In this document: positions 4,304 to 35,962 of the stretch, in pieces
Position numbering within the stretch: position 1 is the stretch's first letter
Layout: the number at the start of each line of letters is the position of its first letter
Origin: Escherichia coli
GTDB taxonomy: Bacteria > Pseudomonadota > Gammaproteobacteria > Enterobacterales > Enterobacteriaceae
Strand: one strand, 5' to 3'
DNA: 64,000 nt
Assembly: GCF_046105845.1 (NCBI RefSeq)
Contig: NZ_CP151004.1
Notes under the pieces: model-generated
What the model was told of the DNA's origin: nothing
Databases searched by the model: none
What the model saw: only the letters and a program-made list of their open reading frames with translations
Position numbers and translations under genes: made by a program

Positions 4304-5887
4304 TCACACCTCGTACTCTATCTCGCTATCCTTACGCAGCGGTATAATCTGCACCTTCTGCACGCGATGGCTTTCCACCTGCAACGTTTTAAGCAAATAA
4401 TCCCCCACCTGAACTTCTTCGCCAGGTTTTGGAATACGCTGCAAATATTCCATCAGCAGCCCGGCAATGGTGTGATATTCGCGTTTCTCATCCAGCGGTA
4501 GCGGCACATATTGCACCAGATCTTCCAGTGGCATATGACCATTCGCCGTCCAGGAACCGTCGGCGTTTTTCTGAATATCATGGCGGGCGTCGATCTCTTC
4601 CACTTCGTTCGGCAAGTTACCGGCAATAGTTTCCGTGACGTCACTTAATGTCACAATCCCTTCCACCGAGCCAAACTCATCCACTACAAAAGCAAAGTGC
4701 GTGCGGGCATTACGGAACTGCTCCAGGGCAGGTAACAACGGCAAGGTTTCCGGGAACACCAGCGGCTGGCGAATCAACACCCGCAGGTTGAGCGGTTCGC
4801 CGCGCAGTGACTGTTGTAACAGGTCGATAACGTGAACAACACCGAGCAAATCTTCTGCGTCATCACCGTCGGTAACCACCAGCCGCGTATGCTGATTTCG
4901 CTCCAGCAACTGGCGGATTTCTTCTTCCGGCGCGTTGAGATCGATATGCTCAATATCGTGGCGCGACGTCATAATGCTGCTGACGGTACGCTGATTAAGA
5001 TTAAGTACCCGCTCAATCATCCGCCGTTCCTGCGGATTAAAGATCTGCTGGTTACCATGATCCACCAGCATGGACGCGGTTTCGGCGTCCAGTTCCGCAT
5101 CTTCTTTTTGCCCGCTAAGCAGGCGCATTACCGCTTCGGTAGTCCGCTGGCGCAGTGTCTGGTTAGCGGAAAGAAAACGTCGACGGTTAAAGATAGCCAA
5201 CTGATTGAGCGCCTCGATCATCACCGAGAAACCAATGGCAGCGTACAGGTAGCCTTTCGGAATGACGAAGCCGAAACCTTCTGCCACCAGGCTAAAGCCA
5301 ATCATCAACAGGAAGCTTAAGCAGAGAATAACGATGGTCGGGTGACTGTTAACAAATTGCGTTAACGGCTTGCTGGCCATCAACATCAGGCTGATAGCGA
5401 TAACCACGGCGGCCATCATGACCAGTAAATGGTCGACCATCCCGACGGCGGTAATCACTGAGTCGAGTGAGAAGATGGCGTCCAGTACCACAATTTGTGT
5501 CACCACCCCCCAGAACTTCGCACCTTTGCGTTGCGTGGGGTTATTGCTGTCTTTCCCTTCCAGCCGTTCGTTCAGCTCCATCGTGGCTTTGAACAGCAGG
5601 AAGAAACCACCAAACAGCATGATTAAGTCGCGGGCGCTAAAGGTAAACGAGCGAAAGCTGAATAGCGGTTGTGTCAGGGTGACCAGCCAGGAGATTGACG
5701 CCAGCAGTAACAGGCGCATTAACATCGCCAGCAGCAGCCCGGTAACCCGTGCGCGGTCGCGCTGCTTCGGCGGTAGTTTTTCGGCGAGGATGGCAATAAA
5801 GACCAGGTTATCAATGCCGAGGACCAGTTCGATCACAATCAGCGTGATTAACCCGGCCCAGATAGACGGATCGGCAATCCATTCCAT
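4304..5887 (-). CDS. yegH: TerC/CBS/CorC-domain inner membrane protein YegH
   Basis: Translation from [32 protein letters not shown] (TerC-like membrane domain) with C-terminal CBS/CorC region; the track ORF is extended 22 codons upstream. Confidence 0.88.
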
Positions 5888-6328
5888 AGTAAGTACAAAA
5901 CCTATTCGTTGTATGACAAATGTCACAATTCGATCATGGATAAATCGGGGCAAAAATGCAATGTTGCAGCACTATTTATCTCATATTATTTGAGGTTTAT
6001 AACCTCACATTATCCCTGAATTAAAAGTGGTAATAATAAAACATTATTTAAGAAATATCGCATGTGGAGACACTATATTAAATATTGTCAACCTAAAGAA
6101 ACTCCTAAAAACCATATTGAATGACACTTAATATAATTCTTAAAAATAGCCAATTGCCGAATTGTTACCTTGCCTGCTATTCCGTTAGCTGTAACACTTC
6201 CTCCTGCATTATTGGAGAGCCAATATTCAATTACCATAATGTCACCTTATATTCGGAAGTTAATTTCCGCAATAACCCTTTCTCATCAACGACTGCATGC
6301 TGAGAGGGTGTAAAAACTAAACTAAATC

Positions 6329-6366
6329 AGTGTATTGGTAGCTAAAAAGCCAGGGGCGGTAGCGTG
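6329..6366 (+). promoter_or_regulatory. JUMPstart element with ops (GGCGGTAGCGTG) upstream of the colanic acid operon
   Basis: CAGTGTATTGGTAGC...GGCGGTAGCGTG; exact ops 12-mer at 6355-6366 in the leader about 180 bp upstream of wza. Confidence 0.85.
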
Positions 6367-6544
6367 TCTGGATGCCTGAAAGACCAGTCTGAATTATTCT
6401 GTCAATAGCCTGCGGATGAAATCAATTTTTTTAGGACTGATGCCAGTTAAATTTTTATTCAATTAACTGCAAGGTAAATGTGCATGGCGACATTGCTATT
6501 AATAGTGCACAGGATAATTACTCTGCCAAAGTGATAAATAAACA

Positions 6545-10298: not shown

Positions 10299-10323
10299 CG
10301 ACGCCTGCATTCGCACCGCCCCG

Positions 10324-10355
10324 TAGGCCGGATAAGGCGTTCACGCCGCATCCGG
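10324..10355. repeat. REP element
   Basis: GTAGGCCGGATAAGGCGTTCACGCCGCATCCGGC palindrome between wzc and wcaA. Confidence 0.75.
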
Positions 10356-10390
10356 CAAGCAAACCAGCTCATAAGTCGGGAGAACAACCT

Positions 10391-30405: not shown

Positions 30406-30444
30406 CAGTGCTCTGGTAGCTGTAAAGCCAGGGGCGGTAGCGTG
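30406..30444 (+). promoter_or_regulatory. JUMPstart element with ops (GGCGGTAGCGTG) in the O-antigen operon leader
   Basis: CAGTGCTCTGGTAGCTGTAAAGCCAGGGGCGGTAGCGTG; exact ops 12-mer at 30433-30444, about 75 bp upstream of rmlB. Confidence 0.88.
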
Positions 30445-30519: not shown

Positions 30520-31605
30520 GTGAAAATACTTGTTACTGGTGGCGCAGGATTTATTGGTTCTGCTGTAGTTCGTCACATTATAAATAATACGCAGGATAGT
30601 GTTGTTAATGTCGATAAATTAACGTACGCCGGAAACCTGGAATCACTTGCTGATGTTTCTGATTCTGAACGCTATGTTTTTGAACATGCGGATATTTGCG
30701 ATGCAGCTGCAATGGCGCGGATTTTTGCTCAGCATCAGCCGGATTCAGTGATGCACCTGGCTGCTGAAAGCCATGTTGACCGTTCAATTACAGGTCCTGC
30801 GGCATTTATTGAAACCAATATTGTTGGTACTTATGTCCTTTTGGAAGCGGCTCGCAATTACTGGTCTGCTCTTGATGGCGACAAGAAAAATAGCTTCCGT
30901 TTTCATCATATTTCTACTGACGAAGTCTATGGTGATTTGCCTCATCCTGACGAAGTAAATAATAAAGAACAATTACCCCTCTTTACTGAGACGACAGCTT
31001 ACGCGCCTAGTAGTCCTTATTCCGCATCAAAAGCATCCAGCGATCATTTAGTCCGCGCGTGGAAACGTACCTATGGTTTACCGACCATTGTGACTAATTG
31101 CTCTAACAATTATGGTCCTTATCATTTCCCGGAAAAATTGATTCCACTAGTAATTCTTAATGCTCTGGAAGGTAAGGCATTACCTATTTATGGCAAAGGG
31201 GATCAAATTCGTGACTGGCTGTATGTTGAAGATCATGCGCGTGCGTTATATACCGTCGTAACCGAAGGTAAAGCGGGTGAAACTTATAACATTGGTGGGC
31301 ACAACGAAAAGAAAAACATTGATGTAGTGCTCACTATTTGTGATTTGCTGGATGAGATTGTACCGAAAGATAAATCTTACCGCGAGCAAATTACTTATGT
31401 TGCCGATCGTCCGGGACACGATCGCCGTTATGCGATTGATGCTGAGAAGATTGGTCGCGAATTGGGATGGAAACCACAGGAAACGTTTGAGAGCGGGATT
31501 CGGAAGACAGTGGAATGGTACCTGTCCAATACAAAATGGGTTGATAATGTGAAAAGTGGTGCCTATCAATCGTGGATTGAACAGAACTATGAGGGCCGCC
31601 AGTAA
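30520..31605 (+). CDS. rmlB: dTDP-glucose 4,6-dehydratase
   Basis: 361 aa, GTG start, [20 protein letters not shown]...; canonical RmlB. Confidence 0.96.
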
Positions 31606-32504
31606 TGAATATCCTCCTTTTTGGCAAAACAGGGCAGGTAGGTTGGGAGCTACAGCGTGCTCTGGCACCGCTGGGTAATTTGATTGCTCTTGATGTTCAC
31701 TCCACTGATTGCTGTGGTGATTTTAGTAATCCTGAAGGTGTAGCTGAAACCGTAAGAAGCATTCGGCCTGATATTATTGTCAACGCAGCCGCCCACACCG
31801 CAGTAGACAAAGCAGAATCAGAACCGGAGTTTGCACAATTACTTAACGCGACGAGTGTCGAAGCGATCGCGAAAGCAGCCAATGAAGTCGGCGCCTGGGT
31901 TATTCACTACTCTACTGACTACGTATTTCCGGGAACCGGTGAAATACCATGGCAGGAGGCGGATGCAACCGCACCGCTGAACGTTTATGGTGAAACCAAG
32001 TTAGCCGGAGAAAAAGCATTACAAGAGCATTGTGCGAAGCACCTTATTTTCCGTACCAGCTGGGTCTATGCAGGTAAAGGAAATAACTTCGCCAAAACAA
32101 TGTTGCGTCTGGCAAAAGAGCGTGAAGAATTAGCTGTTATTAACGATCAGTTTGGCGCACCAACTGGCGCAGAGTTGCTGGCTGATTGTACGGCACATGC
32201 TATTCGTGTTGCACTGAAAAAACCAGAAGTCGCAGGCTTGTACCATCTGGTAGCCAGTGGTACCACAACCTGGCACGATTATGCTGCGCTGGTTTTTGAA
32301 GAGGCGCGCAAAGCAGGCATTCCCCTTGCACTCAACAAGCTCAACGCAGTACCAACATCAGCCTATCCTACACCAGCTCGTCGTCCACATAACTCTCGCC
32401 TTAATACAGAAAAATTTCAGCAGAACTTTGCGCTTGTCTTGCCTGACTGGCAGGTTGGCGTGAAACGAATGCTCAACGAATTATTTACGATTACAGCAAT
32501 TTAA
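31605..32504 (+). CDS. rmlD: dTDP-4-dehydrorhamnose reductase
   Basis: 299 aa, [20 protein letters not shown]...; stop/start overlap with rmlB. Confidence 0.96.
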   Translation: MNILLFGKTGQVGWELQRALAPLGNLIALDVHSTDCCGDFSNPEGVAETVRSIRPDIIVNAAAHTAVDKAESEPEFAQLLNATSVEAIAKAANEVGAWVIHYSTDYVFPGTGEIPWQEADATAPLNVYGETKLAGEKALQEHCAKHLIFRTSWVYAGKGNNFAKTMLRLAKEREELAVINDQFGAPTGAELLADCTAHAIRVALKKPEVAGLYHLVASGTTTWHDYAALVFEEARKAGIPLALNKLNAVPTSAYPTPARRPHNSRLNTEKFQQNFALVLPDWQVGVKRMLNELFTITAI

Positions 32505-32561
32505 TAGTTTTTGCATCTTGTTCGTGATGATGGAGCAAGATGAATTAAAAGGAATGATGAA

Positions 32562-33437
32562 ATGAAAACGCGTAAAGGTATTATTTTAGCGGGTGGTTCT
32601 GGTACACGTCTTTATCCTGTGACTATGGCTGTCAGTAAACAGCTATTACCTATTTATGATAAGCCGATGATCTATTACCCGCTCTCTACACTGATGTTGG
32701 CGGGTATTCGCGATATTCTAATTATAAGTACGCCACAGGATACTCCTCGTTTTCAACAACTTCTGGGTGACGGGAGCCAGTGGGGCCTGAATCTTCAGTA
32801 CCAAGTGCAACCGAGTCCGGATGGACTTGCACAGGCATTTATCATTGGTGAAGAGTTTATTGGTGGTGATGATTGTGCTTTGGTACTTGGTGATAACATC
32901 TTTTACGGTCACGACCTGCCGAAGTTAATGGACGCAGCTGTTAACAAAGGAAGTGGCGCAACGGTATTTGCTTATCATGTAAATGATCCTGAACGCTATG
33001 GTGTCGTTGAGTTTGATAAAAAAGGTACGGCAATTAGCCTGGAAGAAAAACCGCTACAGCCCAAAAGTAATTATGCGGTAACCGGGCTTTATTTCTATGA
33101 TAACGACGTTGTCGAAATGGCGAAAAACCTTAAGCCTTCTGCCCGTGGTGAACTGGAAATTACCGATATTAACCGTATCTATATGGAACAGGGGCGTTTA
33201 TCTGTTGCCATGATGGGCCGTGGTTATGCATGGCTGGACACGGGGACACATCAAAGCCTAATTGAGGCAAGCAACTTCATTGCTACAATTGAAGAGCGTC
33301 AGGGCTTGAAAGTTTCCTGTCCGGAAGAAATTTCTTACCGTAAAGGATTTATTGATGCTGAGCAGGTTAAAGTATTAGCTGAACCGCTGAAAAAAAATGC
33401 TTATGGTCAATATCTGCTGAAAATGATTAAAGGTTAG
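32562..33437 (+). CDS. rmlA: Glucose-1-phosphate thymidylyltransferase
   Basis: 291 aa, [16 protein letters not shown] motif. Confidence 0.96.
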
Positions 33438-33444
33438 TAATAAA

Positions 33445-33996
33445 ATGAACGTAATTAAAACAGATATTCCAGACGTATTAATTTTCGAACCGAAAGTTTT
33501 TAGGGATGAGCGCGGTTTCTTTTTCGAGAGTTTTAACCAAAAGGTTTTTGAGGATGCGGTAGGTCGCAAAATTGAGTTTGTCCAAGATAATCATTCGAAG
33601 TCATGTAAAGGGGTTTTACGTGGACTGCATTATCAGTTAGAACCTTATGCACAAGGAAAATTGGTGCGCTGTGTTGTTGGTGAGGTTTTTGATGTTGCGG
33701 TGGATATTCGTAAGTCTTCGCCTACGTTTGGTAAATGGGTTGGGGTGACTTTATCTGCGGAGAATAAGCGTCAGTTGTGGATCCCTGAAGGATTTGCACA
33801 TGGATTTATAACATTGTCAGAGTTTGCAGAGTTTCTTTATAAAACAACTAGTTTTTATTCCCCAAAACATGAAGTTTGTATTCGGTTTGATGATGAAAAA
33901 ATAGGGATAGAGTGGCAGTGTGCAGAGTATATGAAACTCTCAGAAAAAGATTCAAAAGGGATATCTCTCGATGAATACGTGCGCACGGTGGTATGA
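33445..33996 (+). CDS. rmlC: dTDP-4-dehydrorhamnose 3,5-epimerase
   Basis: 183 aa cupin; synteny; marks the end of the conserved rml block and start of the AT-rich cassette. Confidence 0.95.
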   Translation: MNVIKTDIPDVLIFEPKVFRDERGFFFESFNQKVFEDAVGRKIEFVQDNHSKSCKGVLRGLHYQLEPYAQGKLVRCVVGEVFDVAVDIRKSSPTFGKWVGVTLSAENKRQLWIPEGFAHGFITLSEFAEFLYKTTSFYSPKHEVCIRFDDEKIGIEWQCAEYMKLSEKDSKGISLDEYVRTVV

Positions 33997-34002
33997 TAGA
34001 TT

Positions 34003-34917
34003 ATGAACAAAGTTAGCATATTAATGCCTGTTTATAATGTAGAAAAATATATTAGAGCTGCGATTGGTAGTATATTAAACCAAACATATCCGAATATAGA
34101 GTTAGTAATTGTAGACGATGCGTCTACTGACAATACATTACTCATTATAGATGAAATTGCGCAAAAAAATAATAACATAATTATTGTTCGCAATGATGTA
34201 AACTCTGGAATAACCGTAGCGCTAAACAAAGGTCTTAAATATTGTAGCGGTGATTATATAGCTCGAGCTGATGGTGATGACATACAAGATCCTTTACGAA
34301 TTCAAAAGCAAATAGACTTTCTAAAGGAGAATCAAGAATATGGATTGGTTGGATGTTGGATAAAAAACATAGATGAGTCAGGAAAACAAATAGCTTCATG
34401 TAAATATCCGGTTTCAGACTTAGAAGTGAGACAATGCGTTAGCTATACATCTCCCGTACTTCATATATGGTTAGCAAAGAAAGAAGTTTACGAAAAACTG
34501 AATGGATACAGGAATACAAATCCAGCTGAAGATTATGATTTTATTTTAAGATGTTTGGATTATGGTATAAGAATAGGGAACGTTCCGTATTATGGTTCAA
34601 TGATACGTTTACGTTCAGGGAGTACATTAACTGAATCTTCTTTAAAACAACGGGTTATATCAAACTATCTGTGTAAAAAATTTAAAAAAGGCATTATTAA
34701 TACAATTGATATCGAATCTGAACTACCTAAAACAAATGAACTTAAAATTATTACTAAATTGCATTCTTGGTCATGTTTCTTTTTAAAAAAAGCAATAGAG
34801 AACAAAAGGTCGTTAAAAGGGGCAGCTTATTTATGTTTGTCGCTTATAAGTCCTTTTACAGTTCAAAATATAATAAAGAGGCAGATTTTTAAAAGAAAAT
34901 GTAACAAGGGTTATTAA
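34003..34917 (+). CDS. O-antigen GT2-family glycosyltransferase
   Basis: 304 aa; N-terminal GT-A signature SILMPVYNVEKYI...LVIVDDASTDNT and DGDD motif; AT-rich codon usage. Confidence 0.8.
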   Translation: MNKVSILMPVYNVEKYIRAAIGSILNQTYPNIELVIVDDASTDNTLLIIDEIAQKNNNIIIVRNDVNSGITVALNKGLKYCSGDYIARADGDDIQDPLRIQKQIDFLKENQEYGLVGCWIKNIDESGKQIASCKYPVSDLEVRQCVSYTSPVLHIWLAKKEVYEKLNGYRNTNPAEDYDFILRCLDYGIRIGNVPYYGSMIRLRSGSTLTESSLKQRVISNYLCKKFKKGIINTIDIESELPKTNELKIITKLHSWSCFFLKKAIENKRSLKGAAYLCLSLISPFTVQNIIKRQIFKRKCNKGY

Positions 34918-34918
34918 A

Positions 34919-35962
34919 TTGATAAAAATAGCAATAATATTACCATCATTGAAAAACGTTGGACCGAATAGAGTTGCACATACTCTTATTAACAAACTAA
35001 GTGATAAAGAAGGTGTATACCTAAAGGTTTTTTATATAAAAAAAGAATTAGGATTAAATTTTACTTGTGATACAGAACTTTTGACTTTAGTTAATGTACG
35101 AAAATTATATGCCTTCGATGTCTTGCATTCACATATGCTTAGGCCAGATGTCTTGGTTGGGCTACTTCCATTTTACAAAGGCCTTAAAATAAGCACAATC
35201 CATAATATAGTGACAGAAGATATACAATATACACATGGTAGTGTGATATCTAAAATTGTCTCTGAATTATGGTTTAGGATTTGGAATAGATTTGATAAGA
35301 TAGTCGTGCTATCAAAAGTAGCAAAAAAATACTATCTGGGACATGGGCTAAAATCTAAAAAATTAGAGATCATATATAATGGAATTGATCTGGATATAGG
35401 AAGTAATATCAATTATGAAGATAAGAAAATAATAGAGGAGTTTAAAGGAGACAGTACTCTTCTGGGAACACTTTGTTTAGCAAATCACAGGAAAGGTATA
35501 GAACAGATTCTTTATGCCTTGCCATTCTTACCTAATTATAAATTTATAATTATTGGTGATGGACCTGTAAGAGAATATTTAGAAAATTTAGCTATAAGTC
35601 TGAATGTAAGAGATCGATTTTTTATTCTGGGCTATAGAGAAAACGCTAAAGATTTACTAAAATATATCGATATTTATCTAATGCCAAGTAGATCGGAAGG
35701 ATTTGGTCTCGCATTGCTTGAGGCTGTTGCAGCAAAAATAACAGTAGTTTGCTCAAATATTCCAATATTTAAAGAAATCTTTACTGAACGACAAGTGTCT
35801 TTTTTTGAATTGGATAATACAAACTCACTTATTCAAGCGATACAGAACTCAATAAGTAATGATATAAATGACGCGTATATAAGGCTAAAACAAAATTATA
35901 GCTCAGATACGATGGCTCGATTATATCATGAATTATATATGACTTGTAAGGAAGTAAAATGA
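34919..35962 (+). CDS. O-antigen GT4-family glycosyltransferase
   Basis: 347 aa; C-terminal E-X7-E motif (SRSEGFGLALLEAVAAK); apparent TTG start, so the exact start is uncertain. Confidence 0.75.
   Translation: MIKIAIILPSLKNVGPNRVAHTLINKLSDKEGVYLKVFYIKKELGLNFTCDTELLTLVNVRKLYAFDVLHSHMLRPDVLVGLLPFYKGLKISTIHNIVTEDIQYTHGSVISKIVSELWFRIWNRFDKIVVLSKVAKKYYLGHGLKSKKLEIIYNGIDLDIGSNINYEDKKIIEEFKGDSTLLGTLCLANHRKGIEQILYALPFLPNYKFIIIGDGPVREYLENLAISLNVRDRFFILGYRENAKDLLKYIDIYLMPSRSEGFGLALLEAVAAKITVVCSNIPIFKEIFTERQVSFFELDNTNSLIQAIQNSISNDINDAYIRLKQNYSSDTMARLYHELYMTCKEVK

Follow-up and report, generated by a model that had tools for sequence, protein, structure and literature searches.

JUMPstart elements with consensus ops sites ahead of the colanic-acid and O-antigen operons of an Escherichia coli genome

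Gene context of the two operon leaders

The window analysed here is a 64-kb stretch (64,000 nucleotides) of Escherichia coli contig NZ_CP151004.1 (assembly GCF_046105845.1). The colinear map in a 99.4%-identical genome reads udk-dcd-asmA-yegH(-)-wza-wzb-wzc-wcaA...wcaL, and the ORF map of the window continues onward through wcaM, galF, rfbBDAC, the O-unit genes, gnd, ugd, wzzB and the his operon. Two polysaccharide operons lie on the plus strand, and ahead of the first gene of each cluster an intergenic JUMPstart element is found on the sense (non-template) strand. The features discussed below are listed with the evidence for each in brackets.

6128-6145, plus strand: conserved block TTAATATAATTCTTAAAA upstream of the cps JUMPstart, RcsAB-box-like (footprint over 12 Enterobacteriaceae leaders)
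6167-6200, plus strand: conserved blocks CTTGCCTGCTATT..TTAGCTGTAACA upstream of the cps JUMPstart, promoter-like (footprint over 12 Enterobacteriaceae leaders)
6328-6366, plus strand: JUMPstart of the colanic-acid (cps/wca) operon leader, yegH/wza intergenic (RF01707, 57.3 bits)
6335-6353, plus strand: stem-loop of the cps JUMPstart, arms TTGGT 6335-6339 and GCCAG 6349-6353 (Rfam consensus structure and covariation)
6355-6366, plus strand: cps ops 12-mer GGCGGTAGCGTG, non-template strand, same strand as wza (exact match)
6545-29079, plus strand: colanic-acid operon wza-wzb-wzc-wcaA...wcaM, about 22.5 kb (ORF map and colinear RefSeq annotation of the 99.4%-identical genome)
30406-30444, plus strand: JUMPstart of the O-antigen (rfb) operon leader, galF/rfbB intergenic (RF01707, 60.0 bits)
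30413-30431, plus strand: stem-loop of the rfb JUMPstart, arms CTGGT 30413-30417 and GCCAG 30427-30431 (Rfam consensus structure and covariation)
30433-30444, plus strand: rfb ops 12-mer GGCGGTAGCGTG, non-template strand, same strand as rfbB (exact match)
30520-42110, plus strand: O-antigen operon, rfbBDAC with glycosyltransferase, flippase/polymerase-like, ATP-grasp and galE genes, about 11.6 kb (ORF map, NCBIfam and related-genome annotation)

The 3' end of ops lies 178 nt from the wza ATG (6545) in the first leader and 75 nt from the rfbB start codon, a GTG (30520), in the second. RefSeq carries no annotation at either 39-mer site. A BLAST search with both copies, which covered 5426 complete E. 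coli genomes, placed the first in the yegH/wza spacer and the second in the galF/rfbB spacer. Clear intrinsic terminators were located only after gnd, ugd and wzzB; scans for intrinsic terminators and sigma-70 promoters inside the operons gave nothing above shuffle expectation, Rho-dependent termination being outside the scope of these scans.

Several further features were observed in these operons and their surroundings. The O-antigen cluster (30520-42110), which includes an ATP-grasp ORF at 37896-38933 and has galE as its last gene, is matched at about 99% in only 2 of the 5426 complete genomes (JNEC-KY203 and 2017.17.01CC), and four further genomes with wzx/wzy annotated as 'O48 family' match at 85.6%. 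Between ugd and wzzB, a minus-strand gene (45105-46109) encodes a 334-aa SDR-family sugar epimerase/dehydratase-like protein; it is convergent with ugd, with which it has in common a bidirectional terminator-like hairpin at 45056-45091. Within the colanic-acid operon, the cpsB-cpsG spacer holds the Rfam algC RNA motif RF02929 (20753-20802, plus strand, 77 bits), and the wzc-wcaA spacer holds a REP-like GC-rich palindrome, gccggataaggcgttcacgccgcatccggc, at 10300-10365, possibly an internal stem-loop that an antiterminator would need to read through. Farther downstream, the His operon leader RF00514 (54690-54813, minus strand, 131.6 bits) heads the minus-strand his operon, and the enterobacterial sRNA STnc240 (RF02074, 69.3 bits) is found at 57111-57185 on the plus strand.

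Identification of the JUMPstart elements

A whole-window Rfam scan identified exactly two full-length matches to RF01707 (JUMPstart RNA), both spanning model positions 1-38 of 38 at E-values of 1e-10 to 1e-11, the curated gathering score of this family being 35 bits. An earlier sequence-only reading of this DNA had placed the first element at 6329-6366; the end of that span agrees with the Rfam match, but the match begins at 6328. In both elements the ops consensus GGCGGTAGnnTG is matched exactly by GGCGGTAGCGTG, and the two copies are separated by 24,078 bp. The exact 12-mer occurs nowhere else in the window on either strand, non-leader positions included, and it appeared in none of 100 dinucleotide-preserving shuffles of the window, which bears out the claim of two exact ops copies 24 kb apart. 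Looser searches returned four extra sites with up to two mismatches, a number at chance level, and two further copies of the 8-nt core GGCGGTAG at 5769 and 19029, both within coding sequence. For these reasons the extra ops-like sites were rejected as functional candidates.

The flanks of the two copies had also been described as near-identical, and alignment confirmed this over the JUMPstart, in which 34 of 39 nt are identical. Both copies follow the pattern CAGTG...TGGTAGCT..AAAGCCAGGGGCGGTAGCGTG, with a 21-nt exact block that ends at the 3' end of ops, and the similarity stops directly 3' of that point. A chance repeat of a functionless 12-mer can be dismissed in view of the shuffles, the Rfam E-values and the conservation of the element at the same position across genera. 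Each copy is a JUMPstart element that includes a consensus ops site and lies in a polysaccharide operon leader, that of colanic acid in one case and that of the O-antigen in the other, an arrangement that is already known and is textbook material. The placement of the elements at the head of these two operons, as first proposed from the sequence, agrees with the RF01707 matches, the gene context and the literature (PMC9976346, PMC9765446, PMC2864571).

Conservation across genomes and covariation of the hairpin

The exact 39-mer of the cps copy is present in 4140 of the 5426 complete E. coli genomes and that of the O-antigen copy in 2178, K-12 derivatives being included in both counts. The window therefore carries the common E. 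coli alleles of both 39-mers, which are the experimentally characterised elements. A query with the yegH-wza leader found no match in about 590 of the 5426 genomes; these possibly have group-1-capsule or deleted cps loci, or they may reflect a limit of the search.

For a wider comparison, one genome per species was scanned with the pattern GGTAGC-N(9-14)-GGCGGTAGCGTG, which returned at least 120 stretches. Among the matches listed, about 90 came from Enterobacterales and the rest from Shewanella, Aeromonas, scattered high-GC phyla, in which the matches were without JUMPstart-like flanks, and a few misfiled enterobacterial sequences. The enterobacterial matches listed showed three recurrent contexts. 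In the first (yegH/wza), a divergent yegH is followed by the JUMPstart and a wza-type EPS cluster; in the second (galF/rfbB), galF is followed by the JUMPstart and rfbB or other O-antigen genes; and in the third, the element lies in E. coli between waaA and waaQ, at the classical RfaH-dependent LPS-core operon. Two copies on one contig were also seen, among the matches listed, in Salmonella, Citrobacter, Kluyvera, Pseudocitrobacter and Superficieibacter. In an alignment of 94 sequences (A2), whose members were picked by organism name alone, positions outside the search pattern were also conserved (CAGTG, AGCC and GGG), the conservation of GGTAGC and ops being partly by construction as the pattern required both. 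Multi-genus spacer alignments gave identities of 0.9-0.98 over the JUMPstart, with GGTAGC and ops fixed by the search, compared to 0.2-0.5 in the flanks.

Among the misfiled sequences, the record labelled 'Arthrobacter sp. GMC3' (L056, NZ_PJIO01000035.1), a 4155-bp contig at coverage 2, carries an O-antigen JUMPstart identical to that of the window and encodes a GalF stretch with 100% identity to that of the window; E. coli DNA contaminating an actinobacterial assembly is almost certainly its source. Metagenome-assembled genomes labelled 'Erysipelotrichia' (L069) and 'Proteobacteria' (L021) likewise contain enterobacterial JUMPstart loci.

Comparative analysis supported the hairpin that precedes ops. 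Across 84 distinct Enterobacterales sequences, 97.6% of the cells of the 5-bp stem were paired and 33 cells were changed on both sides, whereas slid 3' partners paired at 22-60% and none of 500 shuffles reached the observed pairing or covariation score. The two variable stem pairs are compensatory, with C-G/U-A/U-G at one and U-A/A-U/G-C/G-U at the other. The cps copy pairs as U-G/U-A/G-C/G-C/U-G and the O-antigen copy as C-G/U-A/G-C/G-C/U-G. The stem-loop that Weinberg et al. 2010 had described for JUMPstart (PMC2864571) is reproduced by this covariation. Single-sequence RNA folds of the 39-mers were no better than shuffles (z = -0.03), and the minimum-free-energy fold of the cps copy picks a stem other than the consensus one, so the support for the stem comes from comparative analysis only.

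The covarying stem also bears on the proposal that the transcribed hairpin and ops act in addition as an RNA element, with three operon leaders titrating or competing for scarce RfaH. RirA, an RfaH-binding RNA from the waaQ leader, contains JUMPstart and ops (PMC5736990), which makes it conceivable that the cps and rfb leaders also act at the RNA level. A structured RNA would fit the use of G-U pairs, which are workable on the sense strand only, and both Rfam and Weinberg et al. 2010 list JUMPstart as a candidate structured RNA. However, a hairpin in the non-template DNA would fit a sense-strand signal equally well, and the single-sequence folds described above count against an RNA element. 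On balance, a RirA-like role might exist at these leaders, and we consider it unlikely. The ops-DNA mechanism does not account for what the 5' half of JUMPstart, with its hairpin, does.

Recombination between the two copies

The sequence-only reading had suggested that the two copies offer a substrate for recombination between the colanic-acid and O-antigen loci, and this suggestion was not supported. A 21-nt exact direct repeat at a distance of 24 kb, with one copy at the edge of the hypervariable O-antigen cluster, is what makes such exchange conceivable. Efficient RecA-dependent exchange, however, needs a minimum length that 21 nt at best just reaches. Chimeric queries were designed for a deletion (yegH side, JUMPstart and rfbB side) and for a duplication (galF side, JUMPstart and wza leader) and searched in the 5426 genomes. 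In the roughly 4830 E. coli genomes that matched the query halves, no site covered 80% or more of either chimera, the deletion query being able to detect only genomes whose O-antigen cluster begins with a similar rfbB, about half.

Homogenisation of the copies was likewise not observed. In six two-copy genomes, the cps and O-antigen copies had an identity of 0.64 at variable positions within a genome, the same value as between genomes (0.64), compared to higher values for positional orthologues (0.77 for cps and 0.86 for O-antigen). Across genera, the two loci also retain distinct signatures, ATTGG...AAAAAGCC at cps against (C/A)CTGG...GTTAAGCC at the O-antigen locus. These locus-specific signatures, together with the lack of excess identity within genomes, indicate that the shared 21-mer reflects functional constraint on an old element and not exchange. 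With neither junctions in the roughly 4830 genomes, the deletion query covering rfbB-first clusters, nor homogenisation in the six two-copy genomes, we rejected recombination or gene conversion as something that the copies serve or are kept by, and regard it as highly improbable.

The cps control region and transcription initiation

Upstream of the cps JUMPstart, the blocks at 6128-6200 are putative cps control elements, RcsAB-box-like and promoter-like in sequence, and lie about 130-240 nt 5' of the element. No match to the RcsAB-box consensus with up to three mismatches was found in the cps control region, and block 6128-6145 matches the consensus as used here only with four mismatches. Activation of the wca operon by RcsA/RcsB has been described (PMC9976346). 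Within the same yegH-wza control region (about 6088-6237), RefSeq genomes have a minus-strand ORF annotated as a 49-aa 'hypothetical protein'; this ORF overlaps the conserved RcsAB-box-like and promoter-like blocks and is probably an over-call.

The presence of these conserved blocks 5' of the cps JUMPstart fits a leader position of the element. It also bears on the view that JUMPstart is part of a promoter and acts at initiation, for which one review describing JUMPstart as including 'a proposed promoter region' (PMC5399914) could be cited. Sigma-70 consensus scans of both leaders gave only weak, chance-level candidates, and no sigma-70-like hexamer pair overlaps either JUMPstart; in the cps spacer, the conserved promoter-like blocks instead lie 130-200 nt 5' of it. 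Action after initiation is stated in the title of Leeds & Welch 1997, as cited in PMC9765446, and in its account of delta-hns delta-stpA cells the latter paper describes apparent sigma-70 peaks upstream of wza with RfaH associating downstream. Taken together, a role of JUMPstart at initiation and not after it appears extremely improbable.

The leader between the cps ops site and wza

Translation signals at the first genes of the two operons are weak. The anti-SD duplex energies were -2.3 kcal/mol for wza and -3.3 kcal/mol for rfbB, compared to about -6 kcal/mol for most internal genes, a comparison that is approximate as some internal gene starts were taken from a mechanical ORF list. Such weak pairing at wza and rfbB is consistent with contact between RfaH and S10 compensating for a missing Shine-Dalgarno sequence.

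Across genera, the 178-nt stretch between the cps ops site and wza shows strong conservation. It reads TTTTTTAGGACTG from 6427 and then contains a mini-ORF of eight codons (MPVKFLFN*, ATG 6440 to TAA 6466), which starts about 72 nt after ops and is preceded by AGGA at 6434-6437. A second invariant block, GCACAGGATAATTACTCTGCCAAAGTGATAAATAA, lies shortly before the wza ATG (6505-6543). No colanic-acid-type leader examined has an indel in the mini-ORF, and all of them preserve its ATG, frame, length and stop; some Leu and Phe codons carry synonymous changes, and TAA is replaced by TAG in one leader. More distant yegH-linked EPS leaders, those of Pantoea, Serratia and Pectobacterium, lack the mini-ORF. 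No relevant publication came up in a search for a leader peptide of wza.

We tentatively propose, as a quite unlikely but specific idea, that the mini-ORF is functional, serving as a first-ribosome loading site for RfaH-S10 or as a translational attenuator before the SD-less wza, and/or that the cps and rfb leader RNAs are RirA-like and titrate RfaH. Neither a functional mini-ORF nor RirA-like cps/rfb leader RNAs were found in the searchable literature. If true, titration of RfaH by these leader RNAs would make the output of O-antigen and LPS core depend on the induction of colanic acid. The one item here that possibly deserves follow-up is the conserved segment from ops to wza, with its mini-ORF and leader block.

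Probable RfaH-dependent antitermination and comparison with known systems

Each copy is very probably a JUMPstart/ops element in a transcribed 5' leader that directs RfaH antitermination of a long surface-polysaccharide operon, and no sequence evidence against this reading was found in the window. According to the mechanism reviewed for ops and RfaH (ops pause, non-template hairpin, RfaH opening, NusG/Rho exclusion and S10 contact; PMC6391919), RNA polymerase initiated upstream would pause at ops, and initiation at cps is expected to be activated by RcsA/RcsB and silenced by H-NS. Within the bubble, the 12-nt ops would lie exposed on the non-template DNA strand and form a small hairpin recognised by RfaH. 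RfaH would then open and its N-terminal domain lock onto RNA polymerase, suppressing pausing and excluding NusG, and hence preventing Rho-dependent termination. The refolded C-terminal domain would bind S10 and aid translation of first genes that have no good Shine-Dalgarno sites. The expected outcome is read-through of the wza-wcaM operon of about 22.5 kb and the rfb operon of about 11.6 kb.

For this strain, we infer transcription of the two sites, the pause, RfaH binding and antitermination from published work. Use of JUMPstart-RfaH antitermination by the wca operon is stated in PMC9976346, which cites Stout 1996 and Hobbs & Reeves 1994 on this point. In the strain CFT073, the sections of PMC9765446 on RfaH ChIP place wza-wcaM among eight loci with a signal at the leader ops, the wza signal being reported only with H-NS/StpA silencing removed (delta-hns delta-stpA); the locus is accordingly called a cryptic RfaH-regulated one under standard conditions. 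The same sections describe an RfaH ChIP signal at the CFT073 O-antigen operon (wzx) and 34 other ops-like sites, all intragenic, without RfaH binding, and Navasa 2014 is cited there for RfaH dependence in other E. coli strains. Control of O-antigen expression by RfaH via JUMPstart is attributed to Wang et al. 1998 in the background given by PMC2864571. Correct annotation is the one point on which the two sites matter: they would show where the RfaH-dependent transcription units of two major surface polysaccharides begin, which is useful for engineering colanic-acid or O-antigen expression.

The two elements agree with the known JUMPstart (Hobbs & Reeves 1994; RF01707, Weinberg et al. 2010), a 39-nt element with the consensus CAGYG..YUGGUAGCU...AGCCAGGGGCGGUAGCGUG, in which a 5-bp stem-loop is followed by ops just 5' of gamma-proteobacterial polysaccharide clusters. 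Both copies in the window have this arrangement, and no difference was noted: these are the prototype loci, with identical 39-mers in K-12 derivatives. They also resemble the general ops/RfaH system (Bailey, Hughes & Koronakis 1997; Artsimovitch & Landick 2002; PMC6391919), in which a non-template ops lies in the untranslated leader of a long operon whose first genes have no strong Shine-Dalgarno sequence, as is the case for wza and rfbB. However, the cps ops differs from the general system in being reported as 'cryptic', H-NS-silenced and Rcs-dependent, in the wza account of PMC9765446.

The waaQ (rfaQ) leader with RirA represents the third class of JUMPstart with ops, found between waaA and waaQ in E. 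coli and relatives (L054) and located outside the window. It has the same 3' half as the window copies, but its stem reads AGG...CCU in place of UGG...CCA, a compensatory change, and it is the only one of the three leaders from which an RfaH-binding sRNA has been described (PMC5736990). Finally, in group 1 capsule (K30) and Klebsiella cps loci, galF and JUMPstart lie 5' of the RfaH-dependent wzi-wza-wzb-wzc genes (PMC6128206). The galF-linked JUMPstart thus heads the capsule genes in K30 and Klebsiella, whereas in the window the galF-linked copy heads the O-antigen operon and the yegH-linked copy heads the colanic-acid operon.
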